Assembly: GCA_050246755.1 (NCBI GenBank)
Contig: JBFWVL010000001.1
Coordinates: 512,001 to 576,000 of the forward strand
Direction: 5' to 3'
Length of the DNA stretch: 64,000 nucleotides
Source of the DNA: Bacteriovoracia bacterium
Lineage (GTDB): Bacteria > Bdellovibrionota > UBA1018 > CAIPTA01
Part shown: positions 2,516 through 35,097 of the stretch, one piece after another
Layout of the letters: each line of letters opens with the position of its first letter
How positions within the stretch are numbered: position 1 is the first letter of the stretch
Notes under the pieces: generated by a model
Told to the model about the DNA's origin: nothing
The model's input: the letters and a program-made list of their open reading frames with translations, nothing else
Databases searched by the model: none
Made by a program: the position numbers and the translations under genes

Positions 2516-3133
2516 ATGCCCATGAAAGCCGTTCTCGCCCTCACGATTGCCCTTCTCTCCGCGCACTCTGCGCTAGCCTGCGGCCCGAACACGCGCTGTA
2601 TCGGGCTGGCGGATCCCAACCGGCCGCTGGAGGACATGAAAAATTGCGAGCCCCTCGCCAAGGTGGAGAAAATCAAGAAGGCGGCCCGCGACAGCACCCG
2701 GGCCAAAGATTCCGTTAGACGCTCCGGCGAAGATATAGAATTTTTCGAGGACAGCTGCAAAAGCTACCTCGCCACTCCCCAAGATACTTTCGCTATTCGC
2801 GACGTGGCACAGAAAGGCAGCCGGGCCGGCGATACTAAAATCAGGGCTCGGGAAGACGTGCAGAATGCCCTCAAAGAGCTGAGCGAAATCGAAGGCCCGC
2901 TCGAAAAGCTGGGCGGCGGAGCTTGCCTCGAAGACGTAAAGAAGATGAAGCCCGAGCTGCAGAAAGCCTTAGCCGCCCTCGACGCGAAGGCCGCCGCCGT
3001 AACGGGCTGCGCCGACGTGAAAGCCCCGGATGACCGCCCTCAATGGGATAGGGCAGACCCCCGCGCCTGCGGAATTGCCGGCTGCGAGCAACTACCTAAT
3101 GGGAAATGGACCCCCAAGCGGCTCGGCAACTAG
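2516..3133 (+). CDS. Secreted Cys-containing hypothetical protein
   Basis: GGGAG RBS, signal peptide, 8 bp after previous gene. Confidence 0.65.
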   Translation: MPMKAVLALTIALLSAHSALACGPNTRCIGLADPNRPLEDMKNCEPLAKVEKIKKAARDSTRAKDSVRRSGEDIEFFEDSCKSYLATPQDTFAIRDVAQKGSRAGDTKIRAREDVQNALKELSEIEGPLEKLGGGACLEDVKKMKPELQKALAALDAKAAAVTGCADVKAPDDRPQWDRADPRACGIAGCEQLPNGKWTPKRLGN

Positions 3134-3175
3134 GCCCTATTGCCCTCCCCCTAAATAAATGGCAAACCTGAGGGG

Positions 3176-4399
3176 ATGGCGAAAGAATTCGATACCCTCA
3201 TCATCGGCGCGGGCCTCATCGGCTCCAGCACCGCTTACCACCTAGCCCTCCTCGGCGCCAAAAACATCGCCGTGATCGACGCTGACCTCGCCGGCCGCCT
3301 CTCCTCCTCCGAGCTTAATGCCGGCGGAGCCCGCGTGACCTGGGACCAAAGCATCAACGTACAGCTTTCCAAAGACTCCATCGATTTCCTACGCGAGAAC
3401 CGCGAGCTCACGGGCTACCGCGACTGCGGCTATTTTTGGATGTATAACGAGCAGCAGTGGCCGGGCGCTCAGCGGCGGGTGAAGTTCCTGAAAGAAAAGC
3501 ACGGCATCGAAGTGGAGCTGCTCGATGTGCCGGGAATCCAAAAACGCGCCCCTTTCGTAGACAAAACCGAAGACCTCGTGGGCGCTACCTTTTCTCCCCA
3601 CGACGGCCTCTTCAATCCCAACCTGCTCAAAACTTTCTACCGCGAAGAAGCCCGCAAGCGCGGCGTGGAGTTCCTCGAAGGCCACCGCGTGAAGGCCGTG
3701 GCGGTTTCTTCGGATCGCGTGGAGGTCACCTGCGAGCTGATTCCGCCCAAAAATGAAAACGAGCTCAAGGATTTCTACGAATCGGATCCCGCCATCCTGC
3801 AAAAGGCCCACGGTTCCACCGTGAAAGTTACCGGCCAGCGCCTCGCCAACTGCGCTGGCCCCTGGGCCTCACGGCTCGCGAGGCTCATCGGCTACGAAAG
3901 CCCAGCCTTCGCGATGCGTCGCCAGGTTTCGATCTTCGACGTGCGCGATTTCGATTTCTCCCATTTCGGGATGATGATCGATACGAGCGGCGTTTATTTT
4001 CACCCCGAAGCCACGAATATCTTAGGCGGCTACGCCGAGCCCACGGAAGCCAAGGGCTGGAACCTCAGCTACGACGGCGAAGATTTCTTCCAGGAAAAAA
4101 TCTGGGGCGCGCTCTATAACCGCTCCACCAAGTTCGAGCAGATGAAACACCTCACCGGCTGGGGCGGGCTCTACGAATACACTCCCGACAAAACCGCCAT
4201 CCTCGGGCAGGTTCCGGGAATGAAAAATATTTTTGAAAACCACGGCTATTCCGGCCGCGGCGCCATGCAGAGCTACGCTGGCGGGCGCGGCCTTGCCGAG
4301 CTCCTGCATAACGGGAAGTTTTCTTCTCTCAATCTTAGCGCGCTCACCGGTGACCGCTTCCGTACCGGCGCCCTCGTTTCGGAAGGATTGCTGATTTGA
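3176..4399 (+). CDS. FAD-dependent oxidoreductase (DAO / sarcosine oxidase beta / FOXRED1-like)
   Basis: IIGAGLIG Rossmann motif, SS..NAGG, NCAGPWA, WGGLYEYTPD, HGYSGRG. Confidence 0.85.
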   Translation: MAKEFDTLIIGAGLIGSSTAYHLALLGAKNIAVIDADLAGRLSSSELNAGGARVTWDQSINVQLSKDSIDFLRENRELTGYRDCGYFWMYNEQQWPGAQRRVKFLKEKHGIEVELLDVPGIQKRAPFVDKTEDLVGATFSPHDGLFNPNLLKTFYREEARKRGVEFLEGHRVKAVAVSSDRVEVTCELIPPKNENELKDFYESDPAILQKAHGSTVKVTGQRLANCAGPWASRLARLIGYESPAFAMRRQVSIFDVRDFDFSHFGMMIDTSGVYFHPEATNILGGYAEPTEAKGWNLSYDGEDFFQEKIWGALYNRSTKFEQMKHLTGWGGLYEYTPDKTAILGQVPGMKNIFENHGYSGRGAMQSYAGGRGLAELLHNGKFSSLNLSALTGDRFRTGALVSEGLLI

Positions 4400-22381: not shown

Positions 22382-22408
22382 TAAAGATATTCACCACTTA
22401 ACCGATAA
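22382..22408 (+). promoter_or_regulatory. sigma28-type promoter TAAA-N15-ACCGATAA
   Basis: Near-perfect FliA consensus, 6 nt before ATG 22415. Confidence 0.7.
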
Positions 22409-22414
22409 GCCTGC

Positions 22415-22777
22415 ATGAAGACCCTGATTCTCTGCGGGCTTATTTTCGGCGCTACCCTCGCGCTCGCGAACGAAGCCCTGGAAAACGAAGTTCTGGCGGA
22501 ACGGGAAGACGCCTACGAAGAGGCGCTCGACTGTGTTTCGAGCGCGATGGCGGAAACCAGTCACGCGCGCATGGTGACGGTAGTGCCCAATCCCGGGGCC
22601 GGTGGGGTGATGATTCATGGCCTGCGCTCTTGCTTTAAGTGCCAAGACGGCTGGGAGGCTGCCGTTAGCTACGAGCGCATCGCGCCTTACCTAACGGAAC
22701 GCGGCCAAGAGATGGTGAGGCACCACTCGAAAGCCCAAAAGCCCGTAGAGTCTCCACTGGTGAAGAACTGTTTTTAG
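22415..22777 (+). CDS. Secreted hypothetical protein
   Basis: Signal peptide MKTLILCGLIFGATLALA; promoter and terminator flank it. Confidence 0.65.
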   Translation: MKTLILCGLIFGATLALANEALENEVLAEREDAYEEALDCVSSAMAETSHARMVTVVPNPGAGGVMIHGLRSCFKCQDGWEAAVSYERIAPYLTERGQEMVRHHSKAQKPVESPLVKNCF

Positions 22778-31806: not shown

Positions 31807-33000
31807 TTAGGCGCTCTCCCCCGCCGCATTTCCCGAAGCCCAGGCCCACTGGAAATTATAGCCTCCGAGCCAACCCGTAACGTCCACCACTTCGCCGATA
31901 AAAAACAATCCGGGAACTTTCTTGGCCTCCAGCGTGCGTGAGGAAAGCTCGTTCGTATTGAGTCCGCCGCGGGTAACTTCGGCTTTACCGTAGCCCCCGG
32001 TGCCCACGGGCACGAGCTTCCAAGCATGGAGCCCCGCTGCGAGCTCGCGCAGCTTCAAATCACTCACCTGCACGATCGGCGTGGAGGGAGCGGAAAATTC
32101 CTCCGCCAGTTTCTCGCCGATGCGGGCCGTGAAGCGCTCGGAGAGCAAAGTGCGTACCTCCTTCTGCGAGCCCGCTTTTTTTCGTTCCATAAAAAAATCG
32201 AGCAAGGAAGAATCGGGGCTGAGATTGATCACGATTTCATCTCCGGGAAACCAGTGCAGGGAAACCTGCAGGATCGCCGGGCCGGAGAAGCCGGTATGGG
32301 TGAAGAGAATATTTTCCCGGAATTTCTTCCCGTTACAGCTCACCTCTGCATCGAGGCTCGCTCCCGAAAGGCCGCCAAAACGGCCGAGAAAGGAATCGGC
32401 CATGGTGAGCGAGACGAGCGCGGGATCCCGGCGGGTGATTTCGAGACCGAACTGCTCGGCGATCTGGTAGCCGAAATCGGTGGCGCCTATTTTCGGGATC
32501 GAAAGGCCGCCCGTGGCGATCACCAGGGATTCGGTGAGCATCTCTCCACTAGAAGTATTTAGACGGAAACGGAAACCACCTTCCTCAATTTTCTCCACGC
32601 CGAGGATTTTCGTGTTCAGGCGGATTTCGGCGCCGGCCTCGTCGCATTCTTCGCGCAGCAAGCTCACGATGGACTGGGCCGAATCGTGGCAGAAGAGCTG
32701 GCCCAGCTTTTTTTCGTAGTAGGAAATCCCGTGCTTTTCCACGAGGGAGACGAAATTAGCCGGCGTGAAACGGGCCATCGCCGATTTGGCGAAATGGGAA
32801 TTTTCGGAAAAGTAGGCATGGGGGCCGGCGCCAGTATTGGTGAAGTTACAGCGCCCCCCGCCCGAGATCAGGATTTTTTTGCCGAGCTTATCGGCATGGT
32901 CGAGCGCCAGCGTGCGGCGGCCGCGGCGGGCGGCCGTGGCGGCACACATCATTCCGGCGCCCCCGGCGCCCAGCACTATCACGTCCCATTGCTCCTGCAT
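31807..33000 (-). CDS. HI0933/BaiN-family NAD(P)/FAD oxidoreductase
   Basis: GAGGAG, GKKILISGGGRCNFTN, LFTHTGFSGP, GWLGGYNFQWAWASG. Confidence 0.92.
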   Translation of the reverse strand: MQEQWDVIVLGAGGAGMMCAATAARRGRRTLALDHADKLGKKILISGGGRCNFTNTGAGPHAYFSENSHFAKSAMARFTPANFVSLVEKHGISYYEKKLGQLFCHDSAQSIVSLLREECDEAGAEIRLNTKILGVEKIEEGGFRFRLNTSSGEMLTESLVIATGGLSIPKIGATDFGYQIAEQFGLEITRRDPALVSLTMADSFLGRFGGLSGASLDAEVSCNGKKFRENILFTHTGFSGPAILQVSLHWFPGDEIVINLSPDSSLLDFFMERKKAGSQKEVRTLLSERFTARIGEKLAEEFSAPSTPIVQVSDLKLRELAAGLHAWKLVPVGTGGYGKAEVTRGGLNTNELSSRTLEAKKVPGLFFIGEVVDVTGWLGGYNFQWAWASGNAAGESA

Positions 33001-33086
33001 CCCCCCTCTATACCTGGCCAGCGGAGGCAAAAGAATAGGCCGGAAAAATACTATTAATTTTCAGCAATTACAGCCACTTAGCCATT

Positions 33087-33113
33087 CAAGTTACACGGTA
33101 TTAGGTCCGATAA
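33087..33113 (+). promoter_or_regulatory. sigma28-type promoter CAAG-N15-TCCGATAA with no downstream CDS
   Basis: FliA consensus, pointing opposite to both flanking genes. Confidence 0.6.
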
Positions 33114-33119
33114 AGTATA

Positions 33120-33205
33120 GGACAGTAACATGGGGGGATTTCAGGGGACTTCCATGTGGGGCTCGGGGATACGGTCTGGGGTGACCGCTCCGAGCCTTCT
33201 TTATT
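33120..33205 (+). ncRNA. Putative small structured RNA (G-tract/GGA-rich)
   Basis: Promoter, two hairpins (ACATGG/CCATGT; GGCTCGG/CCGAGCC with inner CGGTC/GACCG), TTCTTTATTTT tail. Confidence 0.5.
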
Positions 33206-34054
33206 TTAGAGGGCCTGACCCAGCGCCTTGGGCGGACGAGACCTTCCTAAGAAGCCGGCCATCACGATTACCGTGGTTAGGTAAGGCAAAGCCTGAATGA
33301 ACTGACTCGGCAGAAAGAGATCCACGTTTTGTGCGCGGATTTGGATCGCTTCCATCAAACCGAAAAACACGCAGGCCAAAACGGCATAGAGCGGACGCCA
33401 CTTCCCGATGATCAGCGCGGCCAGCGCCATGAAACCGCGACCGGCCGTCATATTCCGGGAATAGCCCGAAGCGAGGAATAGCGAAAGGCTCGCGCCTCCC
33501 CAAGCGGCCAGCATTCCGGAAAGCATCACGGCCCCGTAACGAATTTTCTTCACCGAAAAACCGGCGGCCTCGAGGGCCTCGGGCTTCTCCCCGGCGAAAC
33601 TCATGCGCAGGCCGAAATGCGTATGCGTGGTTATACCCCAAACCACGAGCGCCATGATCCAGGCGAACCAGAGCGGGAAATCCTGGAAACGCGCTTCAAG
33701 GGGAAGCGAAGGACTGCCGCCGGTGGAATCGTAGAGCAGCTTGAGCACGAGCGGATTGAGACCCATCGCGAGAAGGTTCATCGCCGTGCCGGCCACTACT
33801 TGGTCGGCACGGCCGTGGATCACGGCCGCAGCGTAGACCATCGCGAACAGTGCCCCGGCAATCCCCGCCGCGAGAAACCCCAGTGGCGCCGAGCCGGTGG
33901 AGAGCGCCACCACCGCGCCGGCGAGGGCGCCTACGAGCATAAAACCTTCCAGCGCGATATTGATCACACCGGCACGCTCGCTGAAGAGACCACCGAGGGA
34001 AGCGAACACGAGCGGAGTGGCTAGGCGCAAAATGCTAAGAAGCAGGCCGGTCAT
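33206..34054 (-). CDS. Nucleoside ABC transporter permease (NupC-like)
   Basis: ERAGVINIALEG, GRGFMALAALIIGKW.P, PKALG. Confidence 0.9.
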   Translation of the reverse strand: MTGLLLSILRLATPLVFASLGGLFSERAGVINIALEGFMLVGALAGAVVALSTGSAPLGFLAAGIAGALFAMVYAAAVIHGRADQVVAGTAMNLLAMGLNPLVLKLLYDSTGGSPSLPLEARFQDFPLWFAWIMALVVWGITTHTHFGLRMSFAGEKPEALEAAGFSVKKIRYGAVMLSGMLAAWGGASLSLFLASGYSRNMTAGRGFMALAALIIGKWRPLYAVLACVFFGLMEAIQIRAQNVDLFLPSQFIQALPYLTTVIVMAGFLGRSRPPKALGQAL

Positions 34055-35097
34055 GGTTTCTTCGTCCTTCCTATTCTCACCGAAGAAAGAATCGCCACCG
34101 CCAGAATCACCAAGGCTTGGATCACGAGGGAGAGATCGCGGGTAACATTCTCGGTTTCGATATCAAGATCAGCGGCCCCCTTATGAAGGGCAGCGAACAA
34201 AAAGGCGGTAAAAAGAACTCCCATGGGATTGCTGCGTGCAAGCAAAGCCACCGCGATCCCGATGAAGCCAAATTCGGGTGAGAAACCGAGCTTATATTTT
34301 CCCGCGGCACCGAATACTTCGCTGAGTGCCACTCCCGCGGCGAGTGCCCCCGCCAGAAACATCGCCATTTGGCGGGTACGGGCCACGTTGATGCCGGAGG
34401 CGGCGGCGGCCCTTTCGTTTTGCCCGCAGGCGCGCAGCTCGAAACCGTATGAAGTGCGGTAGAGAAAAACCCATACAATCGCCGCCACCAGCACCGCCAC
34501 GGGGAAAGCCAAGCTCACCGGCGCATCGCCGAACCATTGCGCGAGCGGATCCACCGTGCGGAAAAAATAAGCGGCGGCTACGGAATGGGTTTCCGGATTC
34601 TGGCTCTCGGGATTCTGCAGGCGCGCGGTAACCGCCCAGCTGGTGAGGGCAGAAGCGATGAAGTTCATCATGATCGTGGTGATCACTTCGTGGCTACCGC
34701 GCACGGTGCGCAGCCAGCCAGCGATCCAAGCCCAGAGCCCTCCGGCCATCATCCCGCAGAAGACGGCGAAAAGAGGCGCGATTACCGGCGGTAAACCCGG
34801 TACGGCAAGCGCCGCCACGGTGGCCGCAAGCGTGCCCACGTTGAGCTGGCCTTCGGCGCCGATATTAAAAAGCCCCGCGTGAAAAGCCACCGCCACCGAA
34901 AGGCCGGTGAAAATGAGCGGCGTGCAATAGTAGAGCGTGACGCCGAGGTCGTAGCGGGAGCCGAATGCGCTCTTGCCGATGATCAGCAGAATATCGAGGG
35001 GCTTTTCGCCGGCGAGCCCGGCTACCACGAGCCCGAGCGCCAGGCCGATGGCCAAACCGCCGATGGCGAGCAAAAAATGCCGGAGCGAGCGACTCAT
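34051..35097 (-). CDS. Nucleoside ABC transporter permease (NupB-like)
   Basis: AGLFNIGAEGQ, EVITTIMMNFIA, GFIGIAVALL. Confidence 0.9.
   Translation of the reverse strand: MSRSLRHFLLAIGGLAIGLALGLVVAGLAGEKPLDILLIIGKSAFGSRYDLGVTLYYCTPLIFTGLSVAVAFHAGLFNIGAEGQLNVGTLAATVAALAVPGLPPVIAPLFAVFCGMMAGGLWAWIAGWLRTVRGSHEVITTIMMNFIASALTSWAVTARLQNPESQNPETHSVAAAYFFRTVDPLAQWFGDAPVSLAFPVAVLVAAIVWVFLYRTSYGFELRACGQNERAAAASGINVARTRQMAMFLAGALAAGVALSEVFGAAGKYKLGFSPEFGFIGIAVALLARSNPMGVLFTAFLFAALHKGAADLDIETENVTRDLSLVIQALVILAVAILSSVRIGRTKKP

Follow-up and report, generated by a model that had tools for sequence, protein, structure and literature searches.

Within a 64,000-nucleotide stretch of a Bacteriovoracia bacterium genome (assembly GCA_050246755.1, contig JBFWVL010000001.1, positions 512,001 to 576,000, here called the window), the gap between two minus-strand genes very probably holds a small RNA (sRNA) gene, which would be read from the plus strand behind a sigma-28-type promoter. 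The genome is a 95.7% complete metagenome-assembled genome (MAG), which we refer to as G000. On one side of the gap lies an HI0933-like flavoprotein gene (31807-33000; PF03486, E 2e-88), and on the other a permease gene (33206-34054; PF02653) that is convergent with the sRNA and is the last of the two in a Bmp/PnrA-type ATP-binding cassette (ABC) operon. The unit as a whole, comprising promoter, two hairpins and T-tail, occupies 33085-33207 on the plus strand. Its promoter combines a sigma-28-type -35-like element, TTCAAG (33085-33090), with a -10-like element, TCCGATAA (33106-33113), whose CCGATA core lies at 33107-33112, CAAG-N15-TCCGATAA spanning 33087-33113. The full TTCAAG-N15-TCCGATAA lies 14 nt upstream of hairpin 1, and transcription would be expected to start at 33119-33121, the usual 7-9 nt downstream of a sigma-28 -10 element. 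Hairpin 1 (33128-33157) folds into nine pairs, including ACATGG (33128-33133) with CCATGT (33152-33157), and exposes the loop motif GGGAC within AGGGGAC at 33143-33149. Hairpin 2 (33158-33198) forms the terminator stem, with an outer helix of GGCTCGG (33160-33166) and CCGAGCC (33190-33196), an inner helix of CGGTC (33172-76) and GACCG (33183-87), and the apical loop TGGGGT (33177-82). A T-tract, TTCTTTATTTT (33197-33207), follows on the plus strand only and completes what a terminator scan recognises as an intrinsic terminator. Promoter, hairpins and tail, as well as the G runs and GGA motifs considered below, all lie where a preliminary description of this DNA had placed them.

The stop codon of the permease gene falls within the T-tail, and the minus strand after the hairpin reads CCACATGG / CCACAUGG, with no U-tract there. 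A consensus scan found the only terminator-like site of the gap on the plus strand; there were none on the minus strand in 33000-33320, and no sigma-70-like promoters in 32000-34500. As the U-tract is present on the plus strand only, the hairpin does not qualify as an intrinsic terminator of the minus-strand ABC operon. The gap had also been thought to lack a credible open reading frame (ORF), and indeed no ORF is conserved among the seven homologs of the unit: their three-frame translations share no start or frame, their indels do not come in multiples of three, and every reading frame would cross the terminator.

These homologs come from a single uncultured family. The unit is single-copy in G000, and BLAST against 40 relatives returned three clear matches (2.5e-17, 6.6e-12 and 4.7e-10) which span the two hairpins and the tail; short matches in other families were dismissed as chance, the four inspected (L013, L014, L018 and L019) being unrelated, apparently coding and without hairpins. 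A covariance model built from four sequences (R1) detected the RNA in six of nine species genomes of one uncultured Bdellovibrionota family, namely G000, G001, G003, G004 and G005 of the window's genus and G007 of another genus, and in none of the 118 genomes examined from the rest of the class. When 185,579 species genomes were scanned with a pattern, only four MAGs came up, all of them among these six, and a metagenome scan added one contig with a seventh copy. The model built from all seven sequences (R2) gave 16 matches in the class and 17 in a phylum sample outside the family; these were weak (19-30 bits) and were rejected as homologs, the 11 inspected being generic hairpin-plus-T-tail terminators, none with the promoter motif or both loop motifs, although a very distant relative is conceivable. 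Rfam 15 held no family at or above its gathering threshold for the window (the best, rli24, scored 14.7 bits against 100, E 7.2, over the terminator part only), the RNA was also unmatched at the six other loci, and neither Rfam nor full-text literature searches turned up a prior description. The RNA was at first suspected to be undescribed, and it would indeed appear to be a new family, confined as far as we searched to one uncultured Bdellovibrionota family. In a wastewater metagenome (run X3) we found a strain ~94% identical over 32600-33800 (70 differences in 1201 nt); among the differences listed, none lies in 33102-33208, against at least 7 in 33020-33101 and at least 13 in 33209-33356, a pattern which we take as only a hint of sRNA conservation. 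The listed differences in the flanking genes were mostly spaced in threes.

The fold is carried by the plus strand. In G000 its minimum free energy (MFE) is -38.2 kcal/mol (z -3.8; matched by none of 200 shuffles), reached with two hairpins, compared with only -27.6 kcal/mol for the minus strand, and in all seven copies the plus strand is lower by 8-15 kcal/mol. We aligned the seven sequences by fitting them to the covariance model, leaving out a chance match at E 0.6. In this alignment standard pairs fill 94.9% of 158 cells, and in 7 of 23 pairs both partners have changed, where 2.0±1.2 such pairs are seen in shuffles (none of 500 reaching 7) and one or two in slid-partner controls, although these figures overstate independence, as the alignment is model-fitted and the sequences are close kin. 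All three helices contribute covarying pairs: both-side changes occur in three of nine pairs of hairpin 1 (93.5% of cells paired), in three of nine pairs of the outer helix of hairpin 2 (96.8% of cells paired) and in one of five pairs of its inner helix. An unfitted MAFFT/RNAalifold alignment of four sequences, in which two pairs are compensatory, gave an identical fold. Of the 158 cells, 31 hold G·U or U·G pairs, each of which would turn into a C·A mismatch on the other strand, and these pairs therefore work only on the plus strand. The unit is thus conserved in related genomes and its helices covary, two points which the preliminary description had proposed to check. Hairpin 2 is followed by a T-rich tail in all seven homologs. 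Two loop sequences are invariant in every copy: loop 1 keeps GGGAC on its 3' side, and the apical loop of hairpin 2 keeps GGGGUG. Both length and sequence differ freely among copies in the 5' half of loop 1 and in the interior loop of hairpin 2, and the hairpin 1 loop of G005 is a UGGGA pentaloop.

The same conservation might arise at the level of DNA if the block combined the divergent HI0933 promoter region with a hairpin ending the ABC operon, the plus-strand promoter being a silent look-alike. The block does sit where one neighbour needs a promoter and the other a terminator, and its homologs are all closely related. However, for the ABC operon the U-tract lies on the wrong strand, all seven copies favour the plus strand in their G·U pattern and MFE asymmetry, and hairpin 1, although it plays no part in termination, shows compensatory changes. 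Promoter, hairpins and tail also stay together where the unit is inverted (in G001) and where the ABC operon is missing (in G004). We consider it very unlikely that the locus is not an RNA gene; the plus-only U-tail and the conserved, covarying helices agree with the initial view that this is a self-contained plus-strand unit and not merely the end of the ABC operon.

Upstream of the RNA, all seven homologs carry the pattern [TC]T[CAG]AAG-N15-NNCGATA[AG], with a fixed spacing and an unconserved spacer, and hairpin 1 begins 8 to 18 nt after the -10 element. Of random 70-nt pieces drawn from the window, 0.05% contain this pattern. The sRNA promoter matches the consensus TTAAG-N16-CCGATA, which is described at 92 of 140 attack-phase promoters of Bdellovibrio bacteriovorus and assigned there to FliA (PMC3627812). 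Across G000, T[TCA]AAG-N15-16-CCGATA has 30 matches, 19 of which lie wholly between ORFs (binomial 6e-14, using a crude ORF map covering ~92% of the genome), and 18 of these 19 have a same-strand ORF within 400 nt, the sRNA locus being the sole exception. The CCGATA-type motif thus appears to be a real promoter class in G000, and the consensus match, the recurrence in all homologs and the intergenic enrichment together strengthen the sigma-28 motif that had been picked out from the sequence. The genes behind the motif encode a trypsin-like protease, an L,D-transpeptidase, PilZ, Hpt, a response regulator, phospholipase D and a desaturase, and many have no assigned family. Two matches without a downstream ORF, at C1:1000118 and C2:194420, were followed by no convincing hairpin or terminator. 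Within the window, a further TAAAG-N15-CCGATA (22382-22407, +) lies 8 nt upstream of a 120-aa ORF (22415-22777) without a Pfam family. G000 encodes five flagellins and two FliA/WhiG-type sigma factors above the TIGR02479 cut-off (C1:1731750-1732424 and C5:58253-58933), and most of the family's genomes contain both sigma types. Around 20 other intergenic promoters use CCGATA, versus CCGAAA or CCGATT at the flagellins, and the two kinds of promoter may reflect two regulons.

The sRNA is also unusually rich in G. Runs of at least four G start at 33132, 33144, 33158, 33165 and 33178, and GGA occurs at 33120, 33136, 33146 and 33167. Both counts are as first reported; the G runs are clearly exceptional, five such runs in 88 nt being reached by none of 20,000 mononucleotide shuffles, but the four GGA are not enriched for the composition (shuffle p = 0.08). 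Genome-wide only 2 of 161,160 88-nt segments hold five of these runs, one being the sRNA locus. The other, outside the window, is at C2:201389-201476 of G000. Such a sequence might act as a G-quadruplex RNA, or as a switch between hairpin and quadruplex, possibly formed between molecules through the two free GGGG loops. The near-unique density of G runs in the genome would suit this idea, as would the 4-5 runs of at least three G in each of the seven copies and the invariance of both loop G-tracts, but the covarying helices use two of the tracts as stem strands, long spacers separate the tracts, and the number of runs of at least four G is not conserved (5, 5, 2, 4, 4, 4 and 1 across the copies). 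MFE folding with quadruplexes enabled keeps the two hairpins in six of seven copies, and in G005 the gain is 1 kcal/mol, in a thermodynamic model only. The G-quadruplex RNA put forward in the preliminary description is therefore highly improbable.

The GGA motifs had suggested a sponge for CsrA, and G000 encodes an flgL-like gene, csrA and fliW in a row (C1:1611889-1613695), the typical arrangement of a FliW-type CsrA. As a CsrA-binding decoy, the sRNA would bind this protein late in the flagellar programme through the GGA of loop 1 and, in some species, through extra GGAs, and both its flagellar-type promoter and the GGA held in the hairpin 1 loop of all seven copies (as part of the UGGGA pentaloop in G005) are in keeping with such a role. 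However, this GGA is the only one of the four kept in all copies, the GGGGUG of loop 2 contains none in any of them, and the number of GGAs in G000 is, as noted, not above chance. CsrA prefers an A two bases before GGA, and only one of the seven copies has it. CsrA is also encoded in all nine family genomes, including the three without the RNA. Known decoys such as CsrB, RsmY and RsmZ likewise present GGA in hairpin loops in genomes that encode CsrA, but they carry many conserved GGA loops, against a single one here, and the Rfam CsrB/Rsm families did not match. The RNA offers at most a single CsrA binding site, and we regard a sponge as quite unlikely.

A related proposal begins from the loops themselves, which have the form (A/U)GGGG(A/U) and resemble Shine-Dalgarno sequences. 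An RNA made only when sigma-28 is active might then be a timed decoy, either for the FliW-type CsrA of this lineage or for the anti-Shine-Dalgarno end of the 30S subunit. The GGA that loop 1 keeps in all seven copies leaves room for this, and GGGGUGA could pair with UCACCUC, which we take to be part of the 16S rRNA 3' end; that end was not found in the G000 MAG. The FliW-type CsrA system has been described as working without antagonising small RNAs (PMC4894983). We think a decoy of this sort improbable.

The genes around the RNA bear on whether it could act in place. The HI0933-like gene adjoins it in all seven loci, divergently in six and co-directionally downstream in G001. In five loci the ABC permease is encoded on the opposite strand past the terminator end of the unit, abutting it in four and ~1 kb off in G005; in G004 a cyclase gene sits where the permease is found elsewhere. 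In G001 (L029 1033-1160) the whole unit, promoter, hairpins and tail, is inverted between the same two flanking genes, which places the permease upstream on the same strand and makes the RNA co-directional with both permease and HI0933; here the unit could double as an HI0933 leader that contains a terminator. In the window the ABC operon and HI0933 are co-directional with no minus-strand terminator between them, so the RNA would be perfectly complementary to any read-through from the one to the other. As a cis-antisense RNA or insulator it might uncouple or silence HI0933 whenever sigma-28 is active, by convergent transcription or by duplex cleavage. The missing minus-strand terminator is consistent with this, as are the operon-like junction of G008, where HI0933 begins ~20 nt after the ABC permease, and the antisense position of the RNA between both genes in five of the seven loci, always beside HI0933. 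Against it, the RNA is in sense orientation in G001 and the ABC operon is absent at the G004 locus, and a purely antisense RNA would need neither the plus-strand fold, with its 31 G·U cells, nor the loop motifs, both of which are selected. The inverted copy and the copy without an ABC operon argue that the unit works by itself, not only through its position, and we judge action in cis to be unlikely.

We therefore favour a free-standing, trans-acting RNA, a reading which, taken as a whole and including action through the loops, we hold to be probable but well short of secure. The sigma-28 (FliA)-type promoter TTCAAG-N15-TCCGATAA would drive an independent sRNA of ~86 nt (~33120-33205, +), ended by hairpin 2 and its U-tract, with two hairpins that each display an invariant G-rich loop, GGGAC and GGGGUG. 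Through these loops the RNA would base-pair with C/U-rich sites of target RNAs while the sigma-28 programme is active, in a motile or 'attack-phase'-like state. The pairing would most likely take place without Hfq or ProQ, neither of which was found in the 95.7% complete genome. Of the roles first imagined for the RNA, that of a G-rich base-pairing regulator is the one the data favour, although no target emerged. To call it an "attack phase" RNA would be by analogy only, the organism being represented by an uncultured MAG.

Several observations weigh against this reading. The putative sigma-28 dependence comes from motif similarity alone, and the recognisable flagellin promoters of G000 consist of TTAAG or TAAAG-N15 followed by CCGAAA, CCGATT or CCGAAG, not CCGATA; with two FliA paralogs and flagellin promoters of this other kind, CCGATA might be read by either sigma factor. 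The covariation counts are not independent, coming from seven sequences of a single family, and R1 did not find the RNA in three genomes of that family (G002, G006 and G008). A search of sequencing runs found none on record as RNA that holds the locus; run X4, labelled RNA-Seq but probably DNA, covers 33323-33481, in the permease gene, and short unrelated pieces. A G-rich seed is not what is usually seen in an sRNA that blocks ribosome binding sites, and the targets may for this reason be sites of another kind. In G000 the loop complements are not enriched in the region -60..+20 around start codons, and loop-only duplex minima of -23.1 and -22.0 fall among those of shuffled loops (-17.6 to -25.1). 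Many of the top-ranked target sites merely match CAUGGGG, in the unconserved arm of hairpin 1, and we discarded full-length duplex predictions as meaningless, as they ignore the folding of the RNA itself.

The most appealing candidate target, the second FliA-type sigma gene, is no more than a weak lead. Its spacer between Shine-Dalgarno sequence and AUG, AGGAGUCCCCCAUG (C5:58990-59010, L082), is complementary to GGGGACU of loop 1 and also to the hairpin 1 arm CAUGGGGG; AGUCCCC in this spacer places the gene 9th of 3576 with loop 1, but only 100th of 3575 once accessibility is counted, which again tells against the proposed pairing. Orthologs of the gene keep a C-rich spacer, as does G002, which lacks the RNA, and cofold gains beat shuffled translation initiation regions in only three of six genomes (p ≤ 0.035).

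An sRNA behind a FliA-type promoter would not be a new principle, sigma-28-dependent sRNAs being established in Escherichia coli, Campylobacter and B. bacteriovorus; what is unusual here is the G-rich chemistry of the loops. Within the same phylum, B. bacteriovorus HD100 has eight attack-phase sRNAs, of which three (APsRNA3, APsRNA6 and APsRNA7) are described as lying behind FliA promoters (Karunker et al. 2013, PMC3627812). They resemble the present RNA in being intergenic and in their TTAAG-N16-CCGATA-type promoter, and the HD100 sigma factor is described as controlling many non-flagellar genes (PMC3627812), a mixture similar to that of the motif genes in G000. The HD100 sRNAs were found by RNA-seq, are given as 128-655 nt long and are reported in that account without homologs outside B. 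bacteriovorus (PMC3627812). By contrast our RNA is ~86 nt long and known from sequence alone, and it is by their descriptions, not their sequences, that we set the HD100 sRNAs apart from it. In E. coli, the sigma-28-dependent sRNAs called UhpU, MotR, FliX and FlgO (Melamed et al. 2023, PMC10578931) are likewise tied in their synthesis to the flagellar sigma factor, and are described as feeding back by base-pairing on the flagellar and ribosomal programme (PMC10578931). They are, however, presented as derived from untranslated regions and dependent on Hfq (PMC10578931), whereas the G000 RNA is free-standing, and searches of its genome found neither Hfq nor ProQ. The E. coli sRNAs share no sequence or Rfam similarity with it.

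Campylobacter jejuni is not known to have Hfq. Its CJnc170/FlmR is reported as a FliA-dependent sRNA (König et al. 2024, PMC11187230) and, like the RNA described here, is free-standing with a FliA-type promoter; the paralogs CjNC1 and CjNC4 are described in the same species (PMC4626219). C. jejuni also has a CsrA-FliW system (PMC4894983), and both proteins are encoded in G000. The C. jejuni sRNAs are nevertheless unrelated in sequence and belong to a different phylum, and loops that are G-rich rather than C/U-rich would imply different kinds of target site. Very little is known of regulatory RNAs in predatory and Bdellovibrio-like bacteria, and the sole catalogue that our literature searches turned up is that of the eight HD100 sRNAs (PMC3627812), none with a known target. 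To this the present locus adds a candidate sRNA family that is compact, well delimited and backed by comparative evidence, from a lineage which only metagenomes have revealed. Its promoter class and its fold are defined and its two candidate functional motifs are obvious, and it gives a tractable way into post-transcriptional control below FliA in Bdellovibrionota.

In the three family genomes without the RNA, its site is filled by three different things. G008 has the operon-like junction of permease and HI0933 described above, and G006 has other sequence at the site. In G002 (L060 ~2695-3200) a sigma-28-like TAAAG-N16-CCGAAA lies divergent from HI0933 and is followed by a small Cys-rich ORF whose start resembles a signal peptide, which suggests that this site keeps a promoter of the same class with a different cargo.

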